The notes under the pieces: model-generated | Database searches by the model: none | What the model was told of the DNA's origin: nothing | Seen by the model: the letters and a program-made list of their open reading frames with translations, nothing else | Source of the DNA: an uncultured Candidatus Peribacteria bacterium | Lineage (GTDB): Bacteria > Patescibacteriota > Gracilibacteria > Peribacterales > Peribacteraceae | Length of the DNA stretch: 64,000 nucleotides | Direction: 5' to 3' | Assembly: GCA_964488165.1 (NCBI GenBank) | Contig: CAZATU010000003.1 | Span: 79,372 to 143,371, forward strand | Position numbers and translations under genes: made by a program | Shown: positions 28,178 through 63,999 of the stretch, piece after piece | Layout of the letters: every line of letters begins with the position of its first letter | Position numbering within the stretch: the stretch's first letter is position 1

Positions 28178-28186
28178 TCGCAGTGT

Positions 28187-43881: not shown

Positions 43882-47727
<3,846 letters not shown>

Positions 47728-47825
47728 GAAACGCTTGGGGAAGAGGAAAAATGCACACATGCAAGCCGGTCGCCTCCTGGCCACGTTCGTCTCAAACGTG
47801 CGGAAAACGCCCGGTGAATGGGTCT

Positions 47826-47860: not shown

Positions 47861-50800
47861 TTACGCGAGTTCGTCGCGGGGGGGCATATCCGGCAGCGGA
47901 GGGCGGGTGCCCATGCGCGCCGTTCGGTCGCCTCCTTCCACGCCACTGCGGATCGCAGCGGGATCGAGGCCGGGCATTGTGCGCTTCACGGCTTCATCGG
48001 CAAGCACGTGGGCCTCGCCATACGTGTGTAGGGGCGAGCCATCGGGCTTCTTCTGGTCAAGGAAGTGCAGGAGGTAGAAGGAGTAGTACGAGCTTGCATC
48101 GCTCCAGTCGCCGCCCACTACGCCAGTAGCAATATTGGTGACGATCTCCTTGGTATGCACGATCATCGTGACGCGTCCGGTATGGGCGCTGGAAAGCTCG
48201 GTGTAGAGGTTGGTCCGGAGGTTCGCGGGGTCAAGACCACCGCTGTGGCAGGCGATGACGTCGAACGTGAAGCGGCAATCTGGGAAGGCATCTACAAGCC
48301 TGCCAACATCGGCGGGGCTTAAGGGGAACCGCGTTCTGCCGTCGGCGCTGGTAAACGACATACCCGTTGTGGAGCCGTGCACGCCAAGTGAAATGTAGAA
48401 ATCACGCACACCCTGGGCAGTCATGGCGCGCACACTCTCTTCCATCATCGCGTGAGGATCACGGTCGACGCCGCGCGCCGGCGCGCCGGAACTTACGAAC
48501 GTATGCCCACGGCCGGCGAGCATGCGCGGCATGTTCGTAATGTTGTTGCGAGTGATGTTCTGCTTGGCGTCGTAGAGGCCGATATAGCCAATGGGCCGAT
48601 CGCGAGGCAGGTCGAACGTGCGCATCCTTGCGCTGTCGGCGCGCTCGGAAGCGCGGATCGCCTCGCCACGACGCATGGCCTGCTCTACATCGGGCTTGAT
48701 GGCCGGGGTTCCGGTGGAAATATTGGTAAAGAGATCGCCCAAGTGCAGGCTGATCTGCGTCGACGGATCATCGGCGCGGCGCAACGTCACCTCGCTGCTA
48801 TCACCATCGTCGCCTCGGAGGTCCCAGGTGGAGAAGAGCCAACGCTGGGCAACGCCATCGACCGTGCGGGTAAACCCAAAGCATTCCCAGTCCGCTGCAC
48901 CAGCATTCTTGAATACCTCGATTGAGGTCGTGCCGCTGGTATAGCGCGGTGCGCGGGTGAAGCAGCGGTCGACGGATTGGTAGAAATTGAATTTGTCTTG
49001 GTTTGAGAGAGCCCTTCTGCGCAAAAGGAACAGCACCGAGCTGCGAGTATTGACTGAATTGGCTCCGCCTTCGGGCGTTTGCGTCGAGGCATCGTAGGTC
49101 ATCTGCCAGCCGCGGTAGCTCATGTGCACTTTGCGACCCTCGATGCGATGGCCCATGGTGCCCCAGGTGAGGGCATTAACGCGCTTGGCAAAGTCCTGGT
49201 CATCGGCGGAGGGGCCGATGGCATCGGCACCCGTCACATCGCCTGCGCTATACTCGGGAGGCCGCACCGGCGCAGTCTTCACGAATGTAAGCGCTCTACG
49301 TTGCTCGGCGGCAGGATCGGTAATGATCCTGTTGCCCTCTGCGGCACGATTACGAAGCAACGTACGCGACGTATCGTTGGCAGCAAGGGCGGTCAGCGCT
49401 GCGGGTGCTTCGAGCGTGTCGGCTACAGCAAGGCGCTGCTCCACCGTAGCGTTCTTGATGAGGTACGATGACCCGCTCGCCGGCACAATCGTGATGATGC
49501 CCATGAGTCGCGTTGCCGAGAACGGCGCAGGATCGGCATCGGGCAAGGCGATCGAACCGTTGGCTTGAATGGTGTAGCGCTTGGTTGTAGCGCCAACGGT
49601 GACATCGACAGTCACGGCTGCCGTCGCAGGATCGACTGAGAAGGTGGTTGCCCTGTTCTTGATGAGCCTTGGAGGCAAGCCCACAAGCGCTGCTGGGCGC
49701 ACGGCCTCAGGGGCGACATCGCGCGTCACGGCGGGGCTGCCGGCGGGCTGGAAGGTAAAGCGGCCGGGCGTGCGGGAGGTAAAGAGCACGGCGCCTCCTG
49801 CTCTACCGATGCTAAAGGGCAAAGTGGTGATATCCACGGCGCGGCCCCCCGTCTTGAGGCTGCCGTCTGCCAATACTTCATAGACAGTGGTCGTACCGTT
49901 GATGACTGCGGTAAAGGAGATCGGTGATGCGGGCGGCGCAACGCGGAATTCGTGGGTGCGGAAAATCGTCATCGCAGCCGGGAAGCCCTCGAAGCCGGCC
50001 GCTGGCGCGGTGGGCACGCGGTCGACTTCATCGCGGAACGCGCGCGCCGCAGCTTCGAGACGGTCTTTGACCGTGCTGTTCGGCTCGAGCACGTTGAACG
50101 AGCGCGTGGTGCCCCTGTAGGTAAGGGCGACGCTGCGGGGAGGCGTGATGGCAAAGGTCATGCCCGCGGGCAACACAGCGGAAGCCACTGCGGCTTCGAA
50201 GCTGCCGGGCGGGGCCTCTGGGGCGTTGAGCGAAATGCCCGCGGCGATGATGGCATTCGTGTAGGTCGTTTCGAGTGCGGCACCCGAATCAGGCTCCGCG
50301 CCCACGGGGGCCAGGTTGATATCGACGGTGCGGGTGACGCCCGTCTTGCTCATGCGGACAAGGGTGTAGCTCGGGTACGCCTTGGTGATGCTGCCCGGGA
50401 GCGTCACTCTCGACCATGCCCGCTCAAAGCCCCTGCGGCGCTGCAGCTCCCTTGCCGACATCGTGAGGAAGGGCGTGATGGCAACGGCGGTGGTGAGGCC
50501 GGGAGCAATCGGGACCGTGCGCGTGAGGCCGTCAAACGACAATGTCACATCGCGCCCGGCGACCGTCACGATCGAAACACCTGCGGGCAACACGATGCCG
50601 CGGACCATGGCTTCGAAGCCGGGAGCGGTTGTTTCTGCAATGGTACGACGTACGGTCTGCGTGCCGACCTGGAAGGCGAATGTGCCGTTTTGGGTGCAGG
50701 TGATGGTGAGGGCTCCATCGCGGCGGGTGACCGTGAACGGCGCGCCGCCCGCAGGAACGATGGCGCCCGCAGCGTTGATCACGAACGGCCGGGCATCCGC

Positions 50801-51628
50801 GCCTTCCCCAAAGATGATGGTCATGGGCGACGTGGGCGGCGTGACGGTGACGGTAAAAGCGGTGTTGCGCTCGATGCGCTCGGGGATGCCGCGCATGGCA
50901 TCGGGAGTCTCGGGCGAAGAGCCCGGCGTCTCGCCGCTGACAAAGCGCGCCACCTGGTCTTCTAAGTACCTGGCGACGGTGTCGGGACGCTGGCCGCTCA
51001 ATGGAATCACATGCGTGCGGCCGTTCAACTGCACCGTCACCTGCATGGTCTGGTCGTTGAGCAAGACGCCCATCTGCGGGTTGCGCAGCGTGAGGCTCGT
51101 CATGGTCGTGCGCACGTTCTGGAGGAGCAGCATGCGCTCCTGCCCGCCCTCGGGGGCGGAGCCGGGAGGCGTCATGCCCGGGTAGGGAGAGGCGCCGGGA
51201 GGCGCGTACCACATCCACGGGCTGGGGTAGGCGTAGCTCTGGTTGGCATACGGGTACATGCCCGACGTATCGAAGGTACCGTTGGGCCACGTACCGTTCA
51301 TCGCCGGATAGTTCTGCAGGTTGTAGACCATCCCGTAATAGTTCTGCTGGATGCCCTGCATCATGTTGGCGTACACGCCCTGCATCTGCGGCCACATCTG
51401 CTGCTGCATCTGCGGGTACTGGTTGAACATGGGCTGCATCCGGTGCGACATCTGCGCGAAGGTGTTGCACATCTGCAGGCAGAACGCGGCGAAGCCGTCG
51501 ACGTTGAGATCAAGCTGTTGGGGGGCTTCGGTCGTCTGCTGCACAGCCTCGGGAGGCGTGGGCACGGCACCGCTTTCCGGAGGAGCGGATTGCCACAGAA
51601 GCCGGCGTTCGGAGAAACGATGCGACAT
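47861..51628 (-). CDS. Giant protein, paralog 1: ERRLL N-motif, Q/M/Y/P low-complexity region, beta-rich repeats, C-terminal caspase-fold (metacaspase/orthocaspase-like) domain
   Basis: Start trimmed to MSHRFSERRLLWQS. The C-terminal region FYISLGVHGSTTG-(x34)-FTFDVIACHSGGL has His at 48377-48379 and Cys at 48248-48250. No signal peptide or TM. Confidence 0.85.
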   Translation of the reverse strand: MSHRFSERRLLWQSAPPESGAVPTPPEAVQQTTEAPQQLDLNVDGFAAFCLQMCNTFAQMSHRMQPMFNQYPQMQQQMWPQMQGVYANMMQGIQQNYYGMVYNLQNYPAMNGTWPNGTFDTSGMYPYANQSYAYPSPWMWYAPPGASPYPGMTPPGSAPEGGQERMLLLQNVRTTMTSLTLRNPQMGVLLNDQTMQVTVQLNGRTHVIPLSGQRPDTVARYLEDQVARFVSGETPGSSPETPDAMRGIPERIERNTAFTVTVTPPTSPMTIIFGEGADARPFVINAAGAIVPAGGAPFTVTRRDGALTITCTQNGTFAFQVGTQTVRRTIAETTAPGFEAMVRGIVLPAGVSIVTVAGRDVTLSFDGLTRTVPIAPGLTTAVAITPFLTMSARELQRRRGFERAWSRVTLPGSITKAYPSYTLVRMSKTGVTRTVDINLAPVGAEPDSGAALETTYTNAIIAAGISLNAPEAPPGSFEAAVASAVLPAGMTFAITPPRSVALTYRGTTRSFNVLEPNSTVKDRLEAAARAFRDEVDRVPTAPAAGFEGFPAAMTIFRTHEFRVAPPASPISFTAVINGTTTVYEVLADGSLKTGGRAVDITTLPFSIGRAGGAVLFTSRTPGRFTFQPAGSPAVTRDVAPEAVRPAALVGLPPRLIKNRATTFSVDPATAAVTVDVTVGATTKRYTIQANGSIALPDADPAPFSATRLMGIITIVPASGSSYLIKNATVEQRLAVADTLEAPAALTALAANDTSRTLLRNRAAEGNRIITDPAAEQRRALTFVKTAPVRPPEYSAGDVTGADAIGPSADDQDFAKRVNALTWGTMGHRIEGRKVHMSYRGWQMTYDASTQTPEGGANSVNTRSSVLFLLRRRALSNQDKFNFYQSVDRCFTRAPRYTSGTTSIEVFKNAGAADWECFGFTRTVDGVAQRWLFSTWDLRGDDGDSSEVTLRRADDPSTQISLHLGDLFTNISTGTPAIKPDVEQAMRRGEAIRASERADSARMRTFDLPRDRPIGYIGLYDAKQNITRNNITNMPRMLAGRGHTFVSSGAPARGVDRDPHAMMEESVRAMTAQGVRDFYISLGVHGSTTGMSFTSADGRTRFPLSPADVGRLVDAFPDCRFTFDVIACHSGGLDPANLRTNLYTELSSAHTGRVTMIVHTKEIVTNIATGVVGGDWSDASSYYSFYLLHFLDQKKPDGSPLHTYGEAHVLADEAVKRTMPGLDPAAIRSGVEGGDRTARMGTRPPLPDMPPRDELA

Positions 51629-51629
51629 G

Positions 51630-51905
51630 CTATGCGTCGAAATTGGGAAGCGGCTCACTCTGACGTTCCTGTTCTTCCTTGCAGCTGCGGCCGAGCTTCT
51701 CCCCTTTCTTCACGAGCTGGTCCATGGAATCGATCCCCTCTTGCACGACGCGTGCGTGCGCATCAAGACCATCACGGAGGAGCTGGGTGATGCTGATGCG
51801 ATCAATTTCCTTCAGACGATCGCTGGCATCGGCAAGCGCCTGACGCACCGGAGGCGGCAGGAGAGGCATGGCCAGCACGAAGGCGCGGAAGGTGGCGGAG
51901 TCCAT
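51630..51905 (-). CDS. Small helical protein (91 aa), partner of giant paralog 1
   Basis: MDSATFRAFVLAMPLLPPPVRQALADASDRL... The TAG stop lies 1 nt before the giant's ATG. Clear paralog of 54613..54894. Confidence 0.75.
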   Translation of the reverse strand: MDSATFRAFVLAMPLLPPPVRQALADASDRLKEIDRISITQLLRDGLDAHARVVQEGIDSMDQLVKKGEKLGRSCKEEQERQSEPLPNFDA

Positions 51906-51919
51906 GTGTGTTTCTCGCC

Positions 51920-51948
51920 ACTATAGCAAAAAAGCCCGATTGAAGCAA
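51920..51948 (-). promoter_or_regulatory. Sigma70-like promoter candidate, module 1
   Basis: Minus strand: TTGCTT (51948-51943), 17-nt spacer ending ...TGC, TATAGT (51925-51920). Only 14 nt to ATG 51905. Confidence 0.5.
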
Positions 51949-51979
51949 TACGGACATCTTCGCATAAGACAATGACCGT

Positions 51980-54616
51980 TTACGCGCTTGCGCCGGGCGA
52001 GATGCCCGGAGGCAGAGGAGGATGCGCATCGGAGCGCGCCGTGCGCTCGCCGCCTGCAACACCGCTGCGGATGACCGCCGGATCAAGACCAGGCAACGTC
52101 CTTTTGATCGCCTCGTCAGCCAGGAGATGCGCTTCGCCATACGTATACAGAGGAGAGCCATCGGGCTTTTTCTGATCGAGGTAATGCAAGAGGAAGAACG
52201 TGTAGAACGACGTAGCATCGCTCCAATCGCGTCCGCCATTGCGAATCCCGGTGGCGATATTATTGACGATTTGCTTCGTGTGGACGAACACGGTCACGCG
52301 CCCGGCGTGCGCACTGGAAAGCTCGGTATAGAGGTTCGTACCAAGATTTGGCGCATCCAGGCCGCCGGTATGGCAAGCGATAACATCGAAAGTGAAGCGA
52401 CAATCCGGATGCGCATCCACCAGCGTGCCAATCTGCTCGGGCGTGAGCGGATAGCGCTCCGAGCCGTCCCTGAACGCCATACCCGTCATGGAGCCATGGA
52501 CCCCGAGGGAAATATAGAAATCATGCACTCCGCTGCGATACAGTTCCGTCACCCGCTCTTCCATCATGGCCAACGGAGCGCGGTTCACGGGCGTGGCGAC
52601 GTCGCCGGATGTCACGAACGTATGCCCTCTGCTCGCGAGCATGCGCGGCATATCGGTCATCGTGTTCTTCGTCATATTCTCATTGCGATCATAGAGTCCG
52701 ATATACCCAATGGGCCGATCGCGCGGGAGCTCGAACGTGCGTATCCGTGCGGCATCGGCCCGCTCCGAAGCACGGATTGCCTCCGCACGACGCATGGCTT
52801 GCTCCACTTCGGCCTTAATGGCCGGCATTCCAGCCTCAATGTTGGTGAACATGTTCTGGAGCTCCACATTGATTTGCGTCGAGGGATCATCGGCGCGACG
52901 CAGTGTGATACTGCCTTCGACGCCTTGCGCACTGCGCGTTGTAAATACGGAAGCGAACCAGCGCTGTGTGACGCCATTGACGGTGCGGGTACATCCGAAA
53001 TGCTCCCAGTCATTCGCCTTGGCATCCTTGAAGACTTCGACGGTCGTGCCAGCGTCGCTCCATCGCGTTGCCCCTGTGAAGCAGCGATCAAGCGATTGGT
53101 AATAATCGAATTTCTCCTGCGTTCCCAAGGATCTGCCACGAGCAATGAAGAGGGCATCAAGCTCCTCTCTGACCAGTGCTGCCGCGGCTGCAGGCGTTTT
53201 GCCTGCCGTGTCACACGTTCGCATCCAACCTCGGTAGCTCATATGAACAAGGCGCCCTTCAATGCGATGCTTCATCGTACTTCCCCATGGCAACGCATTC
53301 ACGAGCTTTCCAAATTCCTGATCGGCAGCTGAGTCGCCTATGGCATCGGCGCCCGTAACATCGCCTTCGCGATATTCGTCAAGCACGAAGGGCTTCTTTC
53401 GCTGCAAGCGAAAGAGATCCTGCTGATCGAAGAGTGGCTTGGTGAGCAGCTGATCGCCCCGCTGCGCTCGCAACCTCAGCGCATCACGCGATTCTTGATT
53501 GGCTGTAAGGAGCGTGAGGCCCTTTGGCACGACGACAGTATCGGCAACGGCAATACGCGACTCCGCCGCGCCGTTCTTCAACGCATACAATGTACCGCTC
53601 TTCGGCGTGATCGTGATCGCGCCCAGCAGACGGGTGACAGTGAATGGCGCAAGAGTGTCATCAGGGGTGGCGATCGTACCGTTTGCCTGGATTGCATAGC
53701 GCTTGGTGGCGTCACCATCGGTGACATCGACCGTGACGGGCGCATCGGCCGGATCGATGGAGAACGTGCTCGGCTGGTTCCTGATGAAACGCGACGGCAA
53801 AGCAACGAATGCCGACGGACGACGAGGCTCCGGAGCAACGTCACGCGTAATGGGAGCTTCTGCACCGGAGCGGAACGTAAAACGCCCGGCGACGCGCGAT
53901 GCAAACGCTACGGCGCCTCCGGCGCGACCCAGGCTGAACGGCAATGCTGCAATATCCACTGCCTTGCCACCCGTCTTGAGTAGGCCATCGGCACCAAGGT
54001 CGTAGACGGTGCTGACGCCGCCGATGAGCGTCGTGCATGCCAGTGGCGCAGCAGCAGGCACCATGCGGAACGTGGATGCTCCGAAGATCCTCATCGCTTC
54101 AGGAAAATCCTCAAAGCCTCCGGAAGGAGCATCTGCAACGCGCTCCGGCTCACCTTTCGTCTGCACAGCGCCATCTGCGTCCGCGCCAACCGCAGACGTG
54201 CCGCCCGGCGACGGCGTATACCACGTCTCCGGCTGTGGGTAGGCGTCGCTCTGGCCACCATGAGGATATGTACTCGCCGAGCTGACGACATCGTTGGGCC
54301 AGGCGCCGTTCATGGCGGAGTACTTCTGGATTGCCTGAAGCATCCCGTCATAGTTCTGCTCAATGCCCTCCGTCATGGTGGCGTAGACCCCCTGGATCTG
54401 CGGCCAGAGCTGCTGCTGCATAGCCTCGGGATAGCGCTTGAACATAGGCTCGAATGCATGTGTGGCCTGCGAAAACGTGTTCACAAGCTCCGGAGAGGAA
54501 TCTCCGGCATCCTGCATGGCGGCCGGCATTCCTTCAGGAGTGGCGGCAGGCTCGCGTGCCTGTTCGGGGTTGGTAGCCTGGTTCAGAAGCCGTCGTTCGC
54601 GAAGGCTCGCGATCAT
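51980..54616 (-). CDS. Giant protein, paralog 2 (same architecture, shorter repeat region)
   Basis: MIASLRERRLLNQA..., ...FYISLGVHGSMTG-(x34)-FTFDVIACHTGGL (Cys at 52373-52375). Collinear with paralog 1 over its C-terminal ~700 aa. Confidence 0.85.
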   Translation of the reverse strand: MIASLRERRLLNQATNPEQAREPAATPEGMPAAMQDAGDSSPELVNTFSQATHAFEPMFKRYPEAMQQQLWPQIQGVYATMTEGIEQNYDGMLQAIQKYSAMNGAWPNDVVSSASTYPHGGQSDAYPQPETWYTPSPGGTSAVGADADGAVQTKGEPERVADAPSGGFEDFPEAMRIFGASTFRMVPAAAPLACTTLIGGVSTVYDLGADGLLKTGGKAVDIAALPFSLGRAGGAVAFASRVAGRFTFRSGAEAPITRDVAPEPRRPSAFVALPSRFIRNQPSTFSIDPADAPVTVDVTDGDATKRYAIQANGTIATPDDTLAPFTVTRLLGAITITPKSGTLYALKNGAAESRIAVADTVVVPKGLTLLTANQESRDALRLRAQRGDQLLTKPLFDQQDLFRLQRKKPFVLDEYREGDVTGADAIGDSAADQEFGKLVNALPWGSTMKHRIEGRLVHMSYRGWMRTCDTAGKTPAAAAALVREELDALFIARGRSLGTQEKFDYYQSLDRCFTGATRWSDAGTTVEVFKDAKANDWEHFGCTRTVNGVTQRWFASVFTTRSAQGVEGSITLRRADDPSTQINVELQNMFTNIEAGMPAIKAEVEQAMRRAEAIRASERADAARIRTFELPRDRPIGYIGLYDRNENMTKNTMTDMPRMLASRGHTFVTSGDVATPVNRAPLAMMEERVTELYRSGVHDFYISLGVHGSMTGMAFRDGSERYPLTPEQIGTLVDAHPDCRFTFDVIACHTGGLDAPNLGTNLYTELSSAHAGRVTVFVHTKQIVNNIATGIRNGGRDWSDATSFYTFFLLHYLDQKKPDGSPLYTYGEAHLLADEAIKRTLPGLDPAVIRSGVAGGERTARSDAHPPLPPGISPGASA

Positions 54617-54894
54617 GCGGCGGAAGAAAAGTCGGGTAGAGCTTCCGACGAACGCTCGCTCTGCTCATCCAATGCACGCATCATTTTGCCGCCCTTCTTC
54701 ACGAGCTCTTCGATCTGCCTGATGCCCTCATGCAGCAGGCTTGCATGTTGTTCCAGTCCTTTGCGCAGAATCCGGACGATGGCGATGCGATCAGACTCCT
54801 GAAAACGCTCACCGGCGTCTGCGAGCGCCTCACGTACCGCGGGCGGCAGCAAGGGCATGGCGAGCACGTACGCGCGGAAGCTGGCGAGATCCAT
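54613..54894 (-). CDS. Small helical protein (93 aa), partner of giant paralog 2
   Basis: MDLASFRAYVLAMPLLPPAVREALADAGERF... ATGA overlap with the giant's start. Confidence 0.75.
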   Translation of the reverse strand: MDLASFRAYVLAMPLLPPAVREALADAGERFQESDRIAIVRILRKGLEQHASLLHEGIRQIEELVKKGGKMMRALDEQSERSSEALPDFSSAA

Positions 54895-54908
54895 AGGGGT
54901 TTCCCCTA

Positions 54909-54937
54909 ATCATAGCAAAAAGCGCCAAATTCCTCAA
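54909..54937 (-). promoter_or_regulatory. Sigma70-like promoter candidate, module 2
   Basis: Minus strand: TTGAGG (54937-54932), 17-nt spacer ending ...TGC, TATGAT (54914-54909). 14 nt to ATG 54894. The spacer 3' half (gc.tttttgc) is shared with the module 1 promoter. Confidence 0.5.
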
Positions 54938-54951
54938 GAATACGCGGCGAT

Positions 54952-55311
54952 TCAGGCGATGTCGGTTTCTTTCGTCGGCTCGATGAGACTGCCGAACGAA
55001 CCGTTGGTCGACGCAAGCGCCTTGCGCAGCTCACCGACGTCAACACCCTCCGAGCACAGCTGGGTCGAAGCGTTCACGCCGGTCTTCTCGGGCTCGGTTT
55101 CGATGACGCCCTTCGTAAGGCTCTGGAGAGAGGCATGGAGAACGATGTAGGCATCACACGCCTCGCACTTGAGCTGCATCAAGAGAAAATCGTCCCCCGT
55201 CATGCGGACGGACGTGAATTCCACGGGGACCTTGCCCCCGCATTGCGGGCAACGCATCTGCTGACGGATGCGCTGGAGGATGAGGTGCAACGTGTGCGGA
55301 TCCCAAATCAC
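54952..55311 (-). CDS. Zinc-ribbon protein (hypothetical)
   Basis: CPQCGG...(x25)...CEAC arrangement. No further motif recognised. Confidence 0.55.
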   Translation of the reverse strand: MIWDPHTLHLILQRIRQQMRCPQCGGKVPVEFTSVRMTGDDFLLMQLKCEACDAYIVLHASLQSLTKGVIETEPEKTGVNASTQLCSEGVDVGELRKALASTNGSFGSLIEPTKETDIA

Positions 55312-55376
55312 GAAGTCATTGTAGCAGATTGGGTCGAAGACGACAACGATTTCCTGCTAGAATATGCCCCTGGTCT

Positions 55377-55874
55377 ATGCGCCCATCTGTCTTCCTCGCC
55401 GCACTTGCGGCAGCGGCCATCCTCGCACCGCTCGCCGCCCTGTCGCTGCGATTCTCAGCGGCGGTGCTCCCGCCCGCGGGCGGCGAAGTGGTCATCGGCA
55501 TCGACCATCAACACGTCGCCACCCTCACGGTGACGGCGACACGCAGTAACGGAAAGCTGTTGTTCGCGGCCGATAACACCGGAACGTCGGGCTTGGGCCT
55601 GCTCGTGCCCGCCGACTGGAAACGCTCCGAAGTACGCAACGTTCCTATTGATTCGATGACGATGGAGCCTCCGGTGCTCGGCATGCGGCGGGTGAGCATC
55701 GCGTCGGGAGCGGGCGTGAGCTTCACTGGTGCCTTCCCTGCAACACTTAAGCTCCATGCGGCCGGAGCGGCGGCGCTCAAAGTGACGATGATCGCGGTGG
55801 ATCTCGATAACGGAACATCGAGCCGGGATGTGCGGTTAGTGCAGCAATCGACGGTGGTGTTGTGGGGAGAGTAG
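55377..55874 (+). CDS. Small secreted protein (hypothetical)
   Basis: Start trimmed to MRPSVFLAALAAAAILAPLAALS (signal-peptide-like). Beta-rich remainder. Confidence 0.55.
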   Translation: MRPSVFLAALAAAAILAPLAALSLRFSAAVLPPAGGEVVIGIDHQHVATLTVTATRSNGKLLFAADNTGTSGLGLLVPADWKRSEVRNVPIDSMTMEPPVLGMRRVSIASGAGVSFTGAFPATLKLHAAGAAALKVTMIAVDLDNGTSSRDVRLVQQSTVVLWGE

Positions 55875-55910
55875 TTCTTTGCAGTAGGGCCGCTTGGGAA
55901 GCAGACTCTA

Positions 55911-56471
55911 TTCCCACTTTTTTAGAAAAAGTTGCCAACGAAACATGCCGGTTTCTTTGCCAACCACACGAATATTCCACCCTTGTCCAAGCGACAAGGG
56001 TGGAGCCCAAGCGCGTGCCGTCAAAGCCCCCACTCCACTTGCGGCACCACCCCCGGCGTTGACGGCGGGCCACCCCAACACGGCATCGCCGTCTACCGCT
56101 CTCCTAGGTATACACATCGGGAGGAAGGAGAACGGGAGGGCCGCCGGGCTGCTCCATCGCGAAGAATCAATCGAACATCCGAACCAGAAGAATGTTGTAC
56201 AGAAGCGCAGCCTGGTTTCTTCTACCAACCTGGCGCGGCCCCGCTGCCACGGGGGGTGTGAGGGGTAGCCCCGCCGTGTCGTGGCGCAGCGAACCGAGCT
56301 GCGCCAACGAGACGAGGAGTCGGACGGGAAACCTTGGACCGTCCGACGACGAGGCCCGGGGCGGTGCGGAGTGTGCACTTGGCGGCGGAGACTTTTCTTT
56401 CGCCGGTTTCTTTGTGTGGTGACAAAGAAATCGGCATCTCTCGTTACGGCAATTTTCTAAAAAAGTGGGAA
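55911..56471. repeat. ~560-bp non-coding element bounded by ~58-bp imperfect terminal inverted repeats, with a GC-rich hairpin-dense core
   Basis: The reverse complement of the left arm (55911-55969, ttcccacttttttagaaaaagttgccaacgaaacatgccggtttctttgccaaccacac) aligns with the right arm (56414-56471, gtgtggtgacaaagaaatcggcatctctcgttacggcaattttctaaaaaagtgggaa), with most positions identical. The core contains perfect hairpins, e.g. ccacccttgtc/gacaagggtgg (55977-56003), ggcgcagc/gctgcgcc and gtcggacgg/ccgtccgac. Only Arg/Pro-rich junk ORFs overlap it. Confidence 0.7.
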
Positions 56472-56500
56472 AGAGAATTTCTCTATGTAGCAAAGAAAAC

Positions 56501-57232
56501 CTAAATAAACCCCTCCACATGCAAATGCTGTTTCTGCAAGCCCCACGTTTCGAGACAGAGTTTTTTCACCTCCGCCGTCATGTCGGGGTTGCCGCATACG
56601 TACACGGTATGGCCGGAGAGATCCGGCAGGATGGTGGGCGTGATCTGCTGGATGCGTCCGCGCAGCCCCTTCCACGCCGCGCTCGGCTGGGAGAGCGTGA
56701 CATGGAGGCGAACGTGCGGATGCTTGGCGCACAGCGCCGACCACTCTTCGAGCCAGAAGAGATCCTCTTCGCTGCGCACGCCGAACACGACGTCCATGGG
56801 GCGTGTATCGCCGCTGGCAAGCGCCGCACGCACATGCGAGCGGAACGGCGCGATGCCCGTGCTGGTGGAAAGAAACATCAGCGGCCGCCCGTCGTGCTCG
56901 AGAACAAAACGTCCGAAAGGCCCCTGGATATCGACACTCCCCCCTTCGCGAAGCGCATGCTCAATCCAGCGGCTCGCCCTGCCGCCGTCTTTGCGCTTGA
57001 TGATGAAGAGCAGCGTGTCTTCCTCGGGCGAAGAAGCGATGGAATAGGCGCGCGGCTGGATATCGGATGGATCATCGAGGCTTGGCACACGCCACAGGAC
57101 GAACTGCCCGGCTTCGTACGCAAACCCCTCGGGGCGCTCCAGCACGATCTCGTGCGTCCCGCGGGCGATGACCGCATTCTTGAGGCAGCGTACGGCAAAG
57201 ATGGGTGTAGCCACAGAAGCCCACTGTACCAC
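56501..57232 (-). CDS. Ferredoxin-NADP reductase-type FAD/NAD(P)-binding oxidoreductase
   Basis: RAYSIASSP (RxYS FAD motif), STSTGIAPF (NAD(P) motif), C-terminal VCGNPDM. Confidence 0.85.
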   Translation of the reverse strand: MVQWASVATPIFAVRCLKNAVIARGTHEIVLERPEGFAYEAGQFVLWRVPSLDDPSDIQPRAYSIASSPEEDTLLFIIKRKDGGRASRWIEHALREGGSVDIQGPFGRFVLEHDGRPLMFLSTSTGIAPFRSHVRAALASGDTRPMDVVFGVRSEEDLFWLEEWSALCAKHPHVRLHVTLSQPSAAWKGLRGRIQQITPTILPDLSGHTVYVCGNPDMTAEVKKLCLETWGLQKQHLHVEGFI

Positions 57233-57236
57233 GAGT

Positions 57237-58355
57237 TCACGCTTTGGCCGCCTTGATCATGGCCAGAAATTCGTCGAAGAGGAACGCGGCATCCTCGGGT
57301 CCAGGAGAGGCTTCGGGGTGGAACTGCACGGCGCGGAAACGATCGCTCTCGTGGCGAATACCTTCCACCGTGCCGTCATTGGCGTTACGGAACCACACCG
57401 ACCAGCCCTTGGGCAGCTCTTCATTGACGGCGAAGCCGTGGTTTTGCGAGGTGATGAGGCAGCGCTTGGACGGAACGCAGACGCCTTCGCGACACTCGTG
57501 CATGAGACACGGTTGGTTGGCTCCGCGATGGCCGTACTTCAACTTGTAGGTGTCGCTGCCGATGGCCAACGCCATCAGCTGGTTGCCTAGGCAAATACCG
57601 AAGGTGGGGATGTCGCGCTCGATCGCCCGCTTGATGGAGCGAATCGTGGGCACGCATTGCTTCGGGTCTCCGGGCCCGTTGCTGATGAAGACGCCGTCGA
57701 TGGCGCCGACGTGCTTGTCGATGTCGTAATCCCAGGGGACACGGACGATGCGCGCGCCGCGCTTGAGCAAGCTGCGGAGAATGTTGCGCTTCATGCCGCA
57801 GTCGTAGGCAAGGATCGTGGGGGCGTCGGGCAAATTGCCGGGGGGTTCGTACGTCAGCACTTCGCCGCAGCTCACTTCAGCGACAAGGTTCTGCAGATTT
57901 GGATCGGGCACCGTGCCGAGCACGGCATCGTCCTTCTGTGCGATGCGCCCGAGCATCACCCCATGCTCGCGGAGCCGCTTGGTGAGCGCACGGGTATCGA
58001 CGCCGGAAATGCCGGGGATCTTGTGGTGTTCGAGCCAGTTGTGGAGGGAGCTCACCGACGCTTGGTGGCTCTTGAAGCGGCTCTCCTGAGCAACGACAAC
58101 GCCGCGCACGTGCACGGCCTCGCTTTCGAGCAACGCGGAAAACCCTCGCGCATCACGCTCCTCGCTCGGGATGCCGTAGTTGCCGATGAGTGGAAACGTG
58201 AACACGAGGATCTGCCCGCGGAAGCTGGGGTCCGTGAGGCTTTCGGGGTACCCCACCATGTTCGTCGTAAAAACCACCTCGCCATGGGCATCGTTTTCGG
58301 CACCGAATGATGCACCGGAATACGTCGTGCCGTCATGCAGGAGAAGCTTCGCCAT
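57237..58355 (-). CDS. carA: Carbamoyl-phosphate synthase small (glutaminase) subunit
   Basis: ...PTFGICLGNQLMALA...HRGANQP...SQNHGFAV...VQFHPEASPGP. Start trimmed to MAKLLLHDG. Confidence 0.92.
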   Translation of the reverse strand: MAKLLLHDGTTYSGASFGAENDAHGEVVFTTNMVGYPESLTDPSFRGQILVFTFPLIGNYGIPSEERDARGFSALLESEAVHVRGVVVAQESRFKSHQASVSSLHNWLEHHKIPGISGVDTRALTKRLREHGVMLGRIAQKDDAVLGTVPDPNLQNLVAEVSCGEVLTYEPPGNLPDAPTILAYDCGMKRNILRSLLKRGARIVRVPWDYDIDKHVGAIDGVFISNGPGDPKQCVPTIRSIKRAIERDIPTFGICLGNQLMALAIGSDTYKLKYGHRGANQPCLMHECREGVCVPSKRCLITSQNHGFAVNEELPKGWSVWFRNANDGTVEGIRHESDRFRAVQFHPEASPGPEDAAFLFDEFLAMIKAAKA

Positions 58356-58414
58356 GGTGCAAATCTGCAGCATGGTAGCGTCGCCACTCGAGGATGACCA
58401 AGCATTTCCGGTGT

Positions 58415-60532
58415 TTACACCACGTCGGAGCCAGCAGACAGACCGTCAGGGCGGAAGCTCGCCGTTTCGACGCCGCCGGTGGGTGTGGTGCGGAAGACGC
58501 CGGCGTCGAGGCCGGGCCACGCGCGTTTGGTGGCTTCGTCGGCGGCGACATGAGCCTGGCCGTACGTCATGCCCTGGTTCAAGAAATGCACGAGGTAGTA
58601 GTCGTAGGGCGTATCGAAGTTGCGGCTGCGGCTGCCGTCGGGGTTCCTCGTTCTGCTGTCGGTGGTCCGGATGGGGTTCGGGAGCTCGGGCTTGGTCTGG
58701 ATGAAGACGCTGATGCGTCCGGACTCTCCGGCAGCTCGGAATTGCTCCGCCATGCGCCCGCTTTGGAAACCGCCGCTGTTGCAGCAGTTCATGCGCAGCA
58801 CGAAGCGGCAATCGTTGTACTTGCTCTTCTTGAACAAGTTCATGAGCTGGCTCGGCTCCAAATCAATCCTGCCTCCGCCGGGGATACCAAATCCTACACT
58901 CGTAGTATCGCCGTGGACGGAGAAATACAGATAGTGATTCTTGATACCGGCGCGGTAGGCAGCATCGAAACGCGACTCGAGGGTGCCAAGCAAGTCCCTA
59001 CCCGCGGCAAAGGTGTCGTTGCCGCCGCCAACCATGTTGTAGCCACGGCTGCCGAGGAATGAGCCGAAGTTGCGGGCATGGTTCTCCTCGGTGGGATCGG
59101 TCTGATCGAAGACACCCGTGTAGAGGATCGACTCGCCACGCGGGAGATCGAAGTTCCGGACGTTTGCGGCGTCGTTGGTCTCGCTCGCGCGGCGTTTGCG
59201 CGCAACTTGCAATGCTTCCTTGATGGCAGAGCCGTTAAGACCGGGTGATGCCAAGAAGGTTCTCGTAAGACCTGCAGCCTGCATGAGCATATCTGAGGCA
59301 TTCTGGAACACGATATTTTGTTCCATGACATGGTTGGTGACGGCCGCTGCAACGTACCAACGTTCGGTCGTACCACCATGATTGACTTCGATAGCGTACC
59401 TGCGGCCATGCTCCGGAGGATTGACGCGCTTGAGCGTGACACCATCGGAAGTACGATCGATACTGGCATCCAATCTGGTCCGAACACTGGAATCGTAGTC
59501 ATTGGCCATTTGCCGGTACACCGAGTTCGGATCTTCGGCAGTGGTACGCACCCAATCGAGACGTGTTTGAATGAAGGACCGTGCCGTCTCGGAATATTCG
59601 ACGCGATTGTAACCGGCACCTGGCGCGACGTCGGGGCCGCGCGGCATTGCGCCAGGCGGCGTTACTCCGGGGCTTGCCGAACCCGACACGGTAATGTCCT
59701 GCCACTGGTAGGGGTTGCGCTCCATTTGATCCTTCCAGCCCACGGAGAAAAGCCCCGGCCGGGTGAATTCGAAGCGGAATGTATGGATATCGCCGAAACG
59801 CGTGGGGCGCACGCGCACGCCGGCCGCCGCTAGAAGCGCGTTGCCGTTTGCCGGCTCCACACTGAGCGTGCGGCTGTTCACGTACACCGATTGCTGCACG
59901 CCACCGGTGCCCGGGAGTTTGACGGCAACAAGGGAGGTGGCATTCAGAATTTCCGTGGAAGCGAGCACGCCGCCGGGCGTCACCTCGGGAGCGCCGGGGG
60001 GTGGACCATAGGGAGGCGCATACGGGTTCGACGGCGGGCCACCATACGGCGCATACGGGTTCGACGGCGGGCCGGATTGCGACGAAGAGCCGGGTCTCCT
60101 GGGCCGCTGGGGGACTCGGCGGCCACCAGGAATGAAAGGCGAATTCGAAGGGTCGGACTGCGGCATGCCGTTGTAATACGGCGGCATGTACTGCGCGTAG
60201 GGATTCGCCTGCTGGCCGTATTGGCCGTAGTACATGTGGGGATATTGCTGGTTGCCCTGCTGCATGCCCGGGTAGCCACTCATCCCCTGCTGCTGCATGA
60301 ACATGTACATCGAGGCATCCACACCCTGGGAGCCGTACTGCTGATACACATTCTGGTAGCCGGGTGAGGCATAGAACTGATTCACGTATTTGAGCGCTTC
60401 CTGGACGCCGGATTCGATGTCGCGCGGCGTTTCACCGGCTCCCTCGGGGGGCGTCGGTCTGTTCTCGGGAGCGGCATGCTGCGCAAGCAGGCGACGTTCC
60501 GCGGCCGTCGAGAAAGCGATGCGGTGGTTCAT
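58415..60532 (-). CDS. Giant protein, paralog 3 (divergent): ERRLL N-motif, Q/Y/G/M/P low-complexity region, C-terminal caspase-fold domain
   Basis: Start trimmed to MNHRIAFSTAAERRLLAQH. ...HYLYFSVHGDTTSVG-(x32)-RFVLRMNCCNSGG (Cys codons at 58781-58786). It shares NFDLPRG... and YGQAHVAADEATKRAWPGLD with paralogs 1 and 2. Confidence 0.8.
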   Translation of the reverse strand: MNHRIAFSTAAERRLLAQHAAPENRPTPPEGAGETPRDIESGVQEALKYVNQFYASPGYQNVYQQYGSQGVDASMYMFMQQQGMSGYPGMQQGNQQYPHMYYGQYGQQANPYAQYMPPYYNGMPQSDPSNSPFIPGGRRVPQRPRRPGSSSQSGPPSNPYAPYGGPPSNPYAPPYGPPPGAPEVTPGGVLASTEILNATSLVAVKLPGTGGVQQSVYVNSRTLSVEPANGNALLAAAGVRVRPTRFGDIHTFRFEFTRPGLFSVGWKDQMERNPYQWQDITVSGSASPGVTPPGAMPRGPDVAPGAGYNRVEYSETARSFIQTRLDWVRTTAEDPNSVYRQMANDYDSSVRTRLDASIDRTSDGVTLKRVNPPEHGRRYAIEVNHGGTTERWYVAAAVTNHVMEQNIVFQNASDMLMQAAGLTRTFLASPGLNGSAIKEALQVARKRRASETNDAANVRNFDLPRGESILYTGVFDQTDPTEENHARNFGSFLGSRGYNMVGGGNDTFAAGRDLLGTLESRFDAAYRAGIKNHYLYFSVHGDTTSVGFGIPGGGRIDLEPSQLMNLFKKSKYNDCRFVLRMNCCNSGGFQSGRMAEQFRAAGESGRISVFIQTKPELPNPIRTTDSRTRNPDGSRSRNFDTPYDYYLVHFLNQGMTYGQAHVAADEATKRAWPGLDAGVFRTTPTGGVETASFRPDGLSAGSDVV

Positions 60533-60885
60533 ACAGACATGCGGGAAGAAGCGGCGTCGGCACCCAGAAGTTCGTCGGCCATTTTGAGCTGCCACACCCG
60601 CTCCCCTTCTTCTTTCGTGACGCGATCATTGCGCCGGTGCGTCTGGATTTCCTGCGCCTGCACATAGAGATAGCCGCTGAATTCCTTGAGCAGATCGCCG
60701 AACGTGCGGAAGGCCCTCCCGTAACGCTCCATACGCAGCCCGTGCTCCTCGGCCGTTTCACCTTTGTACTCCATGTCGAGGTACGGTAAACGGGCGCTGG
60801 TGAGCTCCGGCTCAATCACCGACATGAATCGGTCGTAAATCCACTCCGGGGGAGGCAAGCCTTGTGGGTTTGGTGTGGAAGGCAT
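60529..60885 (-). CDS. Small protein (118 aa), partner of giant paralog 3
   Basis: ATGA overlap with the giant's start. At most a weak resemblance of its charged C-terminal part to the 91/93-aa partners. Confidence 0.65.
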   Translation of the reverse strand: MPSTPNPQGLPPPEWIYDRFMSVIEPELTSARLPYLDMEYKGETAEEHGLRMERYGRAFRTFGDLLKEFSGYLYVQAQEIQTHRRNDRVTKEEGERVWQLKMADELLGADAASSRMSV

Positions 60886-60914: not shown

Positions 60915-60943
60915 ATTATACTTTTTTTACCCCAGAAAATCAA
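60915..60943 (-). promoter_or_regulatory. Sigma70-like promoter candidate, module 3
   Basis: Minus strand: TTGATT (60943-60938), 17-nt spacer, TATAAT (60920-60915). 29-nt leader to ATG 60885. Confidence 0.55.
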
Positions 60944-61791
60944 GCATCCGACGCCAGGTGCTGGGCACGATCCCACAGCGACTGCATGAGCGCGGAGCGG
61001 CGATTGCGCTCCTCTTCGGTGAGCGAAGACCATTCCTCCGGGGATGACCAGCGTTCGAGCAGCGTTTTGAGTGACTGCGCCTGCCGCAGGGCGGCCATGG
61101 AAGCTTGGTCGCTCTTGCCGGTGAACTGCTCCTGGATGGTGCCGACCACCTCGGCCGCCTTGCCCGCCGGCGCGAAGCCGGTCTGGCGGATCTGCGGGGC
61201 AAACTGCATGCCCGAAGCAGTCGACGACGGCTGTATCTGGGGCTGCGCAGGAAGACCGCCCGTAGGCTGAGCAGCCAGCTGCTGGGCGCGAAACGGCGGC
61301 GAAAGCAGGGCAAGCAACTCCTCCGGCACCACGCACCCCGCTTGGAGGCACAGGCCTTGGCAGCTCATGGAAAATTGCGTCAGCAATGCGAGGCGGCGCT
61401 CAAGATGCTCCACAGCATCGCGTCGCATGTCGAGGAAGATCTGGGGGGTGGGCGCCTGCAGAGCGCTCTCCCAATCGGGCTCGGGGATATCGCTCTGGAG
61501 TAGCGGATCGAGGGTGGCGAAGGCAGCGGCCGCGAGAGGCTGTGCGGCAACCGCGATGTCGCGCAATGTGTCGCGCGCCATAGCGAGCAGGTTCGCCCAC
61601 TGGTTCATGCCTTCGTTGAGACGGCGCCAGCTTTCCTGGAGACCAGCAATGCGGCGGCGCAACACGTCAGGCGTCTGTTCTGCGGCGGCAGCAGTGGCAT
61701 CCTTCTGTGAGAACAAGGCCTCAAACGCATCGCGCACCGAGGGGAGCGAAGCGGAGAGCGTCATGCCGGAAGCGGTCGGTGTGGAGGGCAT
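60940..61791 (-). CDS. Hypothetical helical protein (283 aa)
   Basis: Long ORF with non-mirror composition, lying between the transglutaminase-like gene and module 3. No motif recognised. Confidence 0.65.
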   Translation of the reverse strand: MPSTPTASGMTLSASLPSVRDAFEALFSQKDATAAAAEQTPDVLRRRIAGLQESWRRLNEGMNQWANLLAMARDTLRDIAVAAQPLAAAAFATLDPLLQSDIPEPDWESALQAPTPQIFLDMRRDAVEHLERRLALLTQFSMSCQGLCLQAGCVVPEELLALLSPPFRAQQLAAQPTGGLPAQPQIQPSSTASGMQFAPQIRQTGFAPAGKAAEVVGTIQEQFTGKSDQASMAALRQAQSLKTLLERWSSPEEWSSLTEEERNRRSALMQSLWDRAQHLASDA

Positions 61792-61797
61792 GGTCGT

Positions 61798-63999
61798 TTA
61801 TTGGAAATAGGGCGGATATCCGCCTGGGCCGGGAGGCAGGATGCCTTCCGGCGAGCCGCTGGGAGTGCCCGGGTACCCGCCGTAGGGCGAGGTTCCCGGC
61901 AGCATGCCCGGCGGATACTGCCCCGGAGCACCGGGGAAGTTGCCATAGGACGGCGGGCCTGAAGGACGCATACCACCGTAGGGCAGAGTGCCCGGAATCA
62001 CGCGCGGCGCACCGGGCCGGGTGCCGTAGGGTGCCATGCCCGGACCCATGCCGGGGTAGCCGCTGGGTCCTTGCGGCATACCCGGATAGCCGGGCCGCCC
62101 CTGGGGCATACCAGGCATCCCGGGCATACCGCCGTAGGAGGGTGGGCGCGGCGCGGACATGCCGCCGCCACGATTGTGGACGATCTGGTTCCAATCGAAA
62201 TCCCCGAAACCGATGAACGCATGTTGGGCGTTGCCGCCCTGAATGGTATTGGTGACGATGGCCGAGATGCCGCCGCCGCGTGCAGCCACCTCGCGGGCGC
62301 GACCCTGCGCTTCGGGCGGCATGCCCTGGGTACTGGTGAGTTCCCAGTCGACGCCGCTGCGACCGCCGCCGCTCCAGATGGATTGCATGGCTTCGGCAGG
62401 ATTGCGATAGACGCGCGGCACTCGTTGGAACCCGCCGGTGTCGATCTTGCAGAGGATGTATCCCCCGTTCGACGAACGTTCCAGATAGGCGCACACGTAG
62501 TGACCGGGGGTGGCGCGAGCGACGATGTTGCTGATGCCCGCGGCATCCAGAAGGCTGCTCGCGAGCACGGCGAAGTCCTCGCAGTCGCCGGTGGCGCGCA
62601 TGAGCGATTCTTCGGCCGACTGGATGTACTGCTGGCCCGCAGCCTCCGCTTCGAAGTTCACGGTGGAAGCCGTACGAATGCGGTTGCCGGTGCGCGTGAT
62701 GCTGTCTTCGACGGTGAAGTACGATGACACGAACGCGCCGATCGCCTCGGGCGAACCAAGCTGTCGACCCATTTGCTGGAGCATCTGGCGTGCATGATCC
62801 GGGCTCTGCGGACGTTGATTGAGAGACACGGGGCCACCTTCGCCGACGACGTGCATGCCGTGAGGAAGCTGGATCGGGGCGCCTGTGCCGTCGGCACCGG
62901 CGGACACGGACGCCTGCTGGCCGTTGATGCGCACGAGCGCGGGGCGATCGGTGCGGCCGTCGTAGAACACGGTCGCCACAGGGGTGGAACTGCCGTTAAA
63001 GATTTCGCGCACGGTGCGGCCGTCCTGCAGCTCCACGACGCGCGCACTGCCGCCGGGGCCCTGGATGCGGAATTCATCGCCGCGCGCAGTGGTGCCCCAG
63101 GTGACCTGACTTCCATCGGAGCCCTGCCAGGAGCCGCTGCCGACGCGGACGGGTCCGCGGCCGACGAGCGTCTGCGTCCGCGTGACGACCACCGCCTGGC
63201 CCGACGCACCCTCCGCCCAGATGCGCATGCCGTCACTCATGACGCGCATGGGGCCCATCGACTGGATCGCCATGGTGAGGCGTTGTGCCATGTTCTGGAG
63301 CTCCGCGCCGTGCTCCGCGAGGCGGGACGGCGGAATGTTGTGGCGCAGATGGAACGTGCCGCTCACGCCTTGCACCTCGATGCGCTGCCCAGCGACGGAG
63401 AGTTGCTGAAGGACATTCATGATGTACTGACCGTTGAGCTGCTGCTCCTGTGCGTCCCACTCCACGCTCACGTTGGTATTCGAGGGCGTCGGGCCCATGT
63501 TGGGTGGAGCTCCGTACGGAGCTCCCGGAACTCGGCCCATCTGCGGATATCCGCCCTGGTACATGCCGGGACGGTTGATGTTCACCTGCGGCATGTTGCC
63601 CCAGGCGCTCGGAAGGCCGGGGTACATGCCGGGATTCAATGCATGCGCGTACGGGCGGGCAGGGGCCAGGTACGGGCTACCCGGCTGCGGAAACTGGAAC
63701 TGCCGTCCGTAGTTCATCTGCTGGAAGCGCACCTGCGGAGGCACGCCGTGGTTGGAGGTGACGTGATGCATGGGGCCGCCGGGCCGGTGCGAGCTGAAGA
63801 GCTGCGGCGCGCCGCCGTTGAATGACTGAATCGCAAAGCGCTGGTCGGGGCTGCCCCACACCGGTCCGCTCGCCTGGTGCGGAATGGCCGACGGCCAGCC
63901 GCCAAGCTGCGGTTGCGACGGCATGCCCGGCATGACGAAGGGCGACGTGCGCATGGTCGTTGGGCCCATCTGGGGGCCCATCTGCGACCAGGAGTTCAT
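61798..63999 (-). CDS. P/G/Y/M/Q-rich protein with transglutaminase-like Cys-His-Asp core (may extend beyond window end)
   Basis: ...MRATGDCEDFAVLASSLLDAAGISNIVARATPGHYVCAYLERSSNGGYILCKIDTGG. Cys at 62581-62583, His at 62500-62502, Asp at 62440-62442. Flanked by GMPGMPGMPQGRPGYPGMPQG...GGYPPYFQ and an N-terminal P/Q/G/M-rich region. The ATG at 63997-63999 is 1 nt from the window edge. Confidence 0.8.
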   Translation of the reverse strand: MNSWSQMGPQMGPTTMRTSPFVMPGMPSQPQLGGWPSAIPHQASGPVWGSPDQRFAIQSFNGGAPQLFSSHRPGGPMHHVTSNHGVPPQVRFQQMNYGRQFQFPQPGSPYLAPARPYAHALNPGMYPGLPSAWGNMPQVNINRPGMYQGGYPQMGRVPGAPYGAPPNMGPTPSNTNVSVEWDAQEQQLNGQYIMNVLQQLSVAGQRIEVQGVSGTFHLRHNIPPSRLAEHGAELQNMAQRLTMAIQSMGPMRVMSDGMRIWAEGASGQAVVVTRTQTLVGRGPVRVGSGSWQGSDGSQVTWGTTARGDEFRIQGPGGSARVVELQDGRTVREIFNGSSTPVATVFYDGRTDRPALVRINGQQASVSAGADGTGAPIQLPHGMHVVGEGGPVSLNQRPQSPDHARQMLQQMGRQLGSPEAIGAFVSSYFTVEDSITRTGNRIRTASTVNFEAEAAGQQYIQSAEESLMRATGDCEDFAVLASSLLDAAGISNIVARATPGHYVCAYLERSSNGGYILCKIDTGGFQRVPRVYRNPAEAMQSIWSGGGRSGVDWELTSTQGMPPEAQGRAREVAARGGGISAIVTNTIQGGNAQHAFIGFGDFDWNQIVHNRGGGMSAPRPPSYGGMPGMPGMPQGRPGYPGMPQGPSGYPGMGPGMAPYGTRPGAPRVIPGTLPYGGMRPSGPPSYGNFPGAPGQYPPGMLPGTSPYGGYPGTPSGSPEGILPPGPGGYPPYFQ

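Follow-up and report, generated by a model that had tools for sequence, protein, structure and literature searches.

We analysed a 64,000-nucleotide stretch of DNA from an uncultured Candidatus Peribacteria bacterium (contig CAZATU010000003.1 of assembly GCA_964488165.1; the whole stretch is called the window below). The window carries three minus-strand gene pairs, in each of which a small gene (S1, S2 or S3) stands directly before a gene for a large protein (G1, G2 or G3, respectively) that ends in a predicted caspase-like protease domain. By comparison with related genomes we show that the S3-type small protein goes with a short ERRLL-type motif at the N-terminus of the large protein, and not with the protease domain. 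As read from gene order and alignments, these modules are built of a constant N-terminal tag, exchangeable C-terminal domains and a partner that is dedicated to the tag.

The S3 family contains 37 clusters of proteins of 86-183 amino acids (aa), mostly 108-120 aa, all of them unannotated. Sampling of genomic contexts started from the small gene and gave 13 distinct modules: the one in the window, two each in L004 and L013, and one each in L002, L015, L016, L018, L019, L020, L021 and L022. In all 13, the small gene is followed in the same orientation by a large open reading frame (ORF) of 434-1089 aa, with a spacing of -4 to +57 nt. The ERRLL-type motif stands at the start of this large ORF in 12 of the 13 modules; as background, a single one of the 164 remaining six-frame ORFs that reach 200 aa in these sequences has such a motif within its first 45 residues. 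The protease domain is present in four of the 11 downstream large ORFs with a complete C-terminus, and the other seven do without it. It is the difference between these two frequencies, 12/13 for the motif and 4/11 for the protease, that ties the S3-type protein to the motif rather than to the protease.

The positions of the modules are conserved, either upstream of carA and an FNR-like gene or downstream of dnaN-mfd (L021:882-4567; L004, L013, L015, L016, L019), and the C-terminal domain found at these conserved positions differs between genomes. L021 is syntenic with the third module of the window (small gene, large gene, carA, FNR-like gene), and the large ERRL protein encoded there has 459 aa and lacks the protease. 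On marine Peribacter contigs two successive modules lie downstream of dnaN-mfd, one of them with the protease and the other without it or cut by the contig end. A previous inspection of the window, to which we refer as the sequence-only reading, had proposed a system in which a small protein is paired with a caspase-fold protein. The pairing of a small with a large gene is indeed conserved in related genomes, but it is not tied to the caspase domain, since S3-type partners track the motif and the protease versions with a Sec signal peptide are partnerless.

The protease family has two kinds of N-terminus. An ERRLL-type head, roughly h-F-x(0-10)-E-R-R-L-[LIC]-x-F/Q ... P-E, is found in 16 of the 41 family members inspected, and in those 16 it is followed by a polar stretch rich in Pro/Glu or in Q/M/Y. 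Other members, of 456-503 aa, start with classical hydrophobic signal peptides, one of which is Tat-like (SRREFLWLMGGALALG). Where these signal-peptide members (P0151-P0161 and relatives) were placed on contigs, no small gene was found upstream. Nearly all of the ERRL-type protease proteins (15 of 16) have a hydrophobic residue and then Ala or Val as their last two residues (...ELA, ...GMA, ...DVV), and so do two of eight Sec-signal-peptide members. Such a C-terminus, which makes a second terminal signature, could possibly be a degron, a recognition site for a PDZ/C-terminal protease, or an export signal.

G1, G2 and G3 belong to the first kind. As the sequence-only reading had it, all three carry the ERRLL motif and then a low-complexity stretch, which is rich in Q/M/Y/P/G, and its further claim that they lack a signal peptide or transmembrane helix was borne out by hydropathy: neither a transmembrane helix nor a hydrophobic N-terminus was detected in the large proteins (maximum Kyte-Doolittle value over 19 residues, 1.70). 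Judged by composition and hydropathy, no Sec or Tat signal peptide is present on G1-G3, whose N-terminal 40 residues are polar and Pro/Glu-rich. A reading of ERRLL as a Tat signal was ruled out, as no h-region comes after the motif.

The C-terminal domain of the large proteins is predicted to have the fold of clan CD (caspase/legumain), and its His-Cys dyad is intact. The fold is supported by an AlphaFold2 (AF2) model of G2 residues 600-878, obtained with a predicted local distance difference test score (pLDDT) of 86 and a predicted template-modelling score (pTM) of 0.86. The top 50 PDB matches of this model in Foldseek all belong to clan CD (E 1.6e-7 to 3e-4, template-modelling score about 0.4-0.5). 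The neighbours include caspase-11, MALT1, CED-3, caspase-7, legumain, GPI8 and SAVED-CHAT, and the identity of the G2 domain to its structural matches is about 8-14 %. A His-Gly pair (H108-G109), a Cys (C149), a Tyr and a Gly are invariant in domain alignments of 32-41 members. The His-Gly and the Cys come directly after consecutive strands of the G2 model (100-106 and 141-147), and the corresponding catalytic candidates in G2 are His707-Gly708 and Cys748. The caspase fold assigned to this region by the sequence-only reading thus found support in both the model and the fold comparison.

At the level of sequence, the domain is a new, unannotated family inside this well-known fold clan. G1-G3 had no Pfam match at E<=1, and none of 41 relatives had one within the domain at E<=0.01. 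The Peptidase C14 profile (PF00656) gave no significant match in G1-G3 or the 41 relatives, and neither the Peptidase C13 (legumain/GPI8) nor the CHAT profiles matched any of them, the likeness being at fold level only. Models of Pfam, NCBIfam, PADLOC and PHROGs all failed to match the large proteins. A profile search of the PDB returned a single marginal match, metacaspase-4 (E 0.06, about 50 residues), aligned on its CHSGG cysteine motif. The statement that this architecture fits no described family or system has therefore held through searches of Pfam, NCBIfam, PADLOC, PHROGs and PDB, by sequence and by fold. The domain shares with clan CD peptidases (caspases, metacaspases and paracaspases of C14; legumain and GPI8 of C13; CHAT) the predicted fold and a His-Gly...Cys dyad placed after consecutive strands, and its cysteine motif, (A/C)C(H/N)(S/T/G)GG, is similar to the DSCHSGG of metacaspases. 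It differs from the known clan CD families in having its own conserved pre-domain of about 200 aa, an FDLPR motif and a YGEAHxxAD helix. Moreover, none of the 41 members matches the clan CD models of Pfam or NCBIfam, and the identified genomes, those of four family members, belong to Peribacteria only.

A word-indexed protein search with G2 returned only G2 and G1, and the family emerged by exhaustive HMMER searching. With the three C-terminal regions as queries this gave 191 representative clusters, 132 of them at E<=1e-10, and in the 150 matches listed of these 191 the protease domain sits C-terminally in nearly all. Among contigs taken from one genome per species, four loci matched, all from metagenome-assembled genomes of Candidatus Peribacteria/Peribacter. 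A scan of metagenomes with the protease-domain alignment gave five loci, and the same kind of scan found no member of the family in viral contigs. The window itself, with about 60 % G+C, S-layer homology (SLH) proteins, a sortase and DUF4215 cysteine-rich repeat proteins, fits the published description of Peribacteria on these four points (PMC4736985).

The three gene pairs had been presented as paralogous modules. This applies to pairs 1 and 2, which are by sequence a tandem duplication: the identity is 62 % between G1 and G2, across 718 aa, and 57 % between S1 and S2. It does not apply to pair 3, where similarity between G3 and G2 is confined to the ERRLL motif at the N-terminus and to 321 aa (32 % identical) at the C-terminus, and where the small protein appears unrelated to the others, S1/S2 on one side and S3 on the other forming two small-protein families. 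Alignment of the large proteins confirmed that the xFDLPR(D/G) motif, the His/Cys domain and the YG(E/Q)AH block occur in all three; the shared blocks read FDLPR(D/G), VHG...C(H/N)(S/T)GG and YG(E/Q)AH..ADEA.KR..PGLD. The beta-rich repeats of about 90 aa, previously taken as common to the large proteins, were found in three copies in G1 and two in G2, with a unit of about 95 aa, but were not detected in G3 with the repeat hidden Markov model (HMM). BLASTP of G1 against itself did not reveal the repeats, and it was the unit-based HMM that did. Additional repeats make up most of the extra length of G1 over G2. At 705-1255 aa the proteins are large and not giant, as they had been called.

The six minus-strand ORFs of the three pairs were borne out by ORF reading and by public gene calls, the products of 878, 705, 93 and 118 aa being the same in independent calls for the same organism. 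Direct reading of the sequence also upheld the claim that the stop of the small ORF overlaps or abuts the ATG of the large one in every pair. There are ATGA overlaps at 54613-54616 (S2/G2, GCATGATCG) and 60529-60532 (S3/G3, GTATGAACC), and the arrangement TAG-C-ATG at 51626-51632 (S1/G1, GCATAGCATGTCG). G1 has a second possible start, a GTG at 51658, 30 nt upstream of the ATG, which was chosen by the public gene call (1265 aa) and would give a 29-nt overlap with S1; where the motif lies with respect to the start speaks for the ATG at 51628. We detected no Shine-Dalgarno-like sequence ahead of G1-G3, which together with the stop/start junctions is consistent with termination-reinitiation coupling. 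Translational coupling of the small genes to the large caspase-fold proteins, as had been proposed, is supported by these features. Sigma-70-like promoter matches lie upstream of S2 and S3 (Table 1), and a similar promoter-like element upstream of S1 (TTTGCTATAGT / TGCTATAGT; consensus match only). Each pair looks like its own bicistron.

Further information about the small partner was obtained by modelling S3 from 33 homologues with AF2 (pLDDT 92.6). In the model, two short helices form a head, which holds a conserved M-x-x-I-E-P-(D/E)-L block, and are followed by an uninterrupted helix of 72 residues. Conserved hydrophobic positions on the long helix are spaced 3-4-3-4, a stripe characteristic of helices that pack against a second helix. 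The small partners are mostly acidic (isoelectric point, pI, 4.2-6.2). Foldseek with the S3 model gave no PDB fold match, the family has no Pfam relatives, and a PDB profile search returned only noise. The WXG100 profile (PF06013) matched one of 34 S3-family members at E 0.024, which we take as noise, the model showing a head and a single long helix and no hairpin. S1 and S2 are predicted to be helical from the sub-threshold families that they match. Both end in an acidic ...L-P-x-F-S/D tail similar to that of S3-type proteins, a likeness that falls short of demonstrating homology to S3. An HMM of S1/S2 run against the retrieved loci matched only the window's own copies.

Two faint similarities concern the first pair. 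S1 shows sub-threshold similarity to phasins (PF05597, E 5e-5; TIGR01837, E 1e-4), and the Q/M/W-rich region of G1 at aa 24-119 (51272-51559) resembles PhaE (TIGR01834, E 0.13), far under the cut-off. Both are probably compositional.

We hypothesize that the small protein is an escort or adaptor and the large protein its modular cargo, which is delivered to the envelope or the exterior without a signal peptide. We consider this a serious possibility, if somewhat short of probable. According to this proposal, a bicistron recurring across Candidatus Peribacteria would encode first a small acidic helical escort and second a large modular cargo. The cargo would be composed of the N-terminal E-R-R-L-L, often followed by x-F, with a P/E/Q/M/Y-rich stretch, of variable beta-rich repeats, of a conserved pre-domain and of the C-terminal clan CD protease. 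Being made just ahead of the cargo on the same mRNA, the escort would be coupled to it 1:1, and its long amphipathic helix would bind the N-terminal region of the cargo. It may serve as a chaperone or as a targeting adaptor, keeping the aggregation-prone Q/M/Y-rich segment in solution, offering the ERRLL peptide to a receptor, or doing both. The motif and the low-complexity region would stand in for a signal peptide, and the cargo, probably exported, would reach the envelope or exterior by a route that needs no cleavable one. This destination is suggested by the ERRLL head, which occupies the position of the Sec signal of the sister proteins, and by the beta-rich repeats in the middle of G1 and G2. 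The protease would then act outside the cytoplasm, on surface proteins of the Peribacterium itself or on a host cell. S1/S2 could be a lineage-specific analogue of the S3-type escort, fitted to the N-terminal region that is specific to G1/G2.

Several observations weigh against an escort with an exported cargo. No export machinery is linked to the modules; the one candidate that the window offers, a VirD4/TrwB-like ATPase, lies at a distance of 20 kb. The N-terminal motif is unlike any known secretion signal, and no hydrophobic segment comes after it. S3 has no similarity to S1/S2 by BLASTP, and hhalign of the S3 family against S1/S2 gave a probability of 0.2 %. In L018 an S3-type escort precedes a protein without the motif, and the ERRLL-bearing orthologue in L005 has no adjacent escort. 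Finally, the direction from motif to escort rests on seven caspase-type cases, six of which have an escort.

The small protein could instead be a cytoplasmic guard, an inhibitor or antitoxin-like partner of a leaderless protease that could damage its own cell, with co-translation putting the inhibitor first. A small gene that lies upstream and is translationally coupled would suit this role, and the protease versions with signal peptides, which fold outside the cytoplasm, are partnerless as a guard would predict. That the unrelated S1/S2 and S3 both accompany one protease domain is also in line with it. Yet S3-type partners are conserved in sequence although the protease domain is missing from seven of the 11 downstream proteins that are complete, and it is the N-terminal motif (12/13) that co-varies with the partner. 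The predicted long coiled-coil-type helix is, besides, unlike known protease inhibitors and has no PDB fold match. We regard a guard as quite unlikely. Rather unlikely, too, is an intracellular coiled-coil/low-complexity assembly (a scaffold, a condensate, or a granule- or membrane-associated complex) in which nothing is exported and ERRLL is a docking peptide, comparable to the encapsulation peptides that microcompartments and encapsulins use. In favour of this, the motif is a short peptide at the N-terminus with a flexible P/E/A-rich linker behind it, the region rich in Q/N/Y/M/G has a prion-like character, and the cargos without protease are acidic and coiled-coil-like, with weak matches to myosin tails. 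The weak phasin-like (S1) and PhaE-like (G1 N-terminus) matches would point the same way, but they lie far under curated cut-offs and are probably compositional. Against such an assembly, shell or compartment genes are not found nearby, relatives make the same protease core with Sec signal peptides, which argues for an extracytoplasmic workplace, and Ig-like beta repeats are typical of surface proteins.

The resemblance of the fold to SAVED-CHAT and other defence-associated clan CD proteases, and the presence of several divergent copies in one genome, might suggest an anti-phage or conflict system with the caspase/CHAT-like protease as effector and the small protein as sensor or substrate. This is very improbable. 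PADLOC (0 matches, 8 proteins, E<=1) and PHROGs were empty, and no SAVED, NACHT or TPR sensor domains were found. The flanks, rpoC, carA and an FNR-like gene in the window or mfd in relatives, offer no defence-island context, the family was not found in viral contigs, and its relatives bear Sec signal peptides.

The escort-plus-tag module is, by analogy, comparable to chaperone/effector pairs, with no part that resembles a known one. Like the class I chaperones of type III secretion systems, VirE1-VirE2 of type IV secretion systems and Lap-LXG of type VIIb secretion systems, it has a small acidic helical protein encoded just upstream and translationally coupled to a partner whose N-terminal targeting region is conserved and whose C-terminal domains are interchangeable. 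Unlike them, the Peribacteria small partner has no sequence or fold similarity to any secretion chaperone, the motif is a peptide of 5-7 residues at the very N-terminus, and no cognate apparatus was found. Polymorphic toxin/effector loci offer a second comparison, with their constant N-terminal tag and swapped C-terminal domains, here even at a syntenic locus (L021 vs the third module of the window), and with modules in tandem (L004, L013). They differ in that the Peribacteria modules have no obvious downstream immunity gene and a trafficking domain of no known type, and that the cargos include acidic coiled-coil proteins which do not look enzymatic. Staphostatin-staphopain operons also combine a cysteine protease with a co-transcribed small cytoplasmic protein. 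Staphostatins, which inhibit staphopains, are protease-specific beta-barrels whose genes lie downstream of that for the protease; the Peribacteria small protein is helical, lies upstream and also stands beside cargos without protease.

Patescibacteria, or the Candidate Phyla Radiation (CPR), are thought to live on other cells. It is tempting to propose that the E-R-R-L-L peptide and its dedicated escort represent a previously undescribed, signal-peptide-free targeting or export pathway of Peribacteria, by which interchangeable cargos, among them the new family of caspase-like proteases, would reach the surface or host cells. This is possible but doubtful; if true, it would be the first recognisable effector signal in the CPR. 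A perspective from 2024 described the role of the predicted CPR type IV secretion system as completely unknown, and effector delivery to host cells was only speculated (PMC11665869). A searchable N-terminal tag with a partner gene could thus provide a handle for listing candidate surface or effector proteins of Peribacteria and for testing a targeting mechanism. The unannotated clan CD protease adds a new family to the caspase-like peptidases, and even if the escort were merely an inhibitor or a scaffold, this would still be a new protease family with unusual regulation.

Table 1. Coordinates in the window of the three gene pairs and of their protein features and promoter matches (positions count from the first nucleotide of the window).
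Feature	Position	Strand	Remarks
G1, large protein, 1255 aa	47861..51628	(-)	ORF and translation
S1, acidic small partner, 91 aa, pI 5.1	51630..51905	(-)	stop TAG 1 nt ahead of G1 ATG
G2, large protein, 878 aa	51980..54616	(-)	ORF; identical product in public assemblies
S2, small partner, 93 aa, pI 5.7	54613..54894	(-)	ATGA stop/start overlap with G2
G3, large protein, 705 aa	58415..60532	(-)	ORF; identical product in public assemblies
S3, small partner, 118 aa, pI 5.1	60529..60885	(-)	ATGA overlap with G3; 37-cluster family
ERRLL motif of G1, aa 7-11	51596..51610	(-)	
ERRLL motif of G2, aa 7-11	54584..54598	(-)	
ERRLL motif of G3, aa 12-16	60485..60499	(-)	
Beta-rich ~95-aa repeat, copy 1 of G1, aa 244-325	50654..50899	(-)	HMM from other copies, E 2e-12
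Repeat copies 2 and 3 of G1, aa 545-640 and 647-739	49412..49996	(-)	repeat HMM
Repeat copies 1 and 2 of G2, aa 167-262 and 269-361	53534..54118	(-)	repeat HMM
Predicted clan CD (caspase-like) protease domain of G1, aa 980-1246	47891..48691	(-)	family-profile hmmsearch, E 5e-95
Predicted clan CD protease domain of G2, aa 602-867	52016..52813	(-)	AF2 model, Foldseek, invariant columns
Predicted clan CD protease domain of G3, aa 436-697	58442..59227	(-)	hmmsearch, E 3e-91; alignment
C-terminal hydrophobic + A/V ends	47861-47866, 51983-51988, 58418-58423		
Sigma-70-like promoter match upstream of S2	54909..54937	(-)	TTGAGG-17-TATGAT with TG; consensus match only
Sigma-70-like promoter match upstream of S3	60915..60943	(-)	TTGATT-17-TATAAT, 10/12; consensus match only

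The flanks of the modules are housekeeping genes. The location beside core genes noted by the sequence-only reading was confirmed for rpoC (43882-47784) and carA (57237-58373); an FNR-like oxidoreductase is also adjacent, and farther out lie the genes for elongation factor G and ribonucleotide reductase. A reading as a mobile element or a defence island was rejected in view of these flanks and the conserved synteny. Scanning of the whole window found no Rfam families and no tRNAs.

Several other features of the window were recorded. A 119-aa ORF at 54952-55311 (-), 57 nt upstream of S2, has two CxxC pairs (zinc-ribbon-like) and a weak match to DUF7351, and is also a gene call in a public assembly. 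Between the S2 module and the FNR-like gene, a gene-poor stretch of about 1.2 kb contains a perfect 19-nt inverted repeat (55911-55929 / 56453-56471; TTCCCACTTTTTTAGAAAA), with an imperfect extension to about 65 nt per arm and the arms 523 nt apart; no Rfam family or tRNA was found in this region (55911-56471). Directly upstream of S3 lies an ORF for a 283-aa helical protein, 60940-61791 (-), and beyond it a 733-aa ORF, 61798-63999 (-), whose start codon is the last complete one inside the window and which may be truncated. Neither has a Pfam match. Both ends of the 733-aa protein are P/G/Q/M-rich, and its core, 'GDCEDFAVLASSLL...PGHYVCAY', looks like a transglutaminase-like/LapG-type cysteine protease, the sole support being a marginal PDB match to LapG (4fgo, E 1.3).

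At some distance from the modules, the VirD4/TrwB-like coupling ATPase (25697-28177) lies between a 1021-aa SLH protein and a sortase-SLH fusion (22565-29533). This region is possibly an envelope or secretion locus, and nothing ties it to the modules. Near the beginning of the window, at 1845-3485 (-), 3501-4922 (-) and 4908-12068 (+), are encoded an SLH-PDZ-S41 C-terminal processing protease, a PrsW-like protease and four paralogous PMT-type glycosyltransferases. The wall-anchored S41 protease could be relevant to the C-terminal Ala/Val ends of the large proteins.

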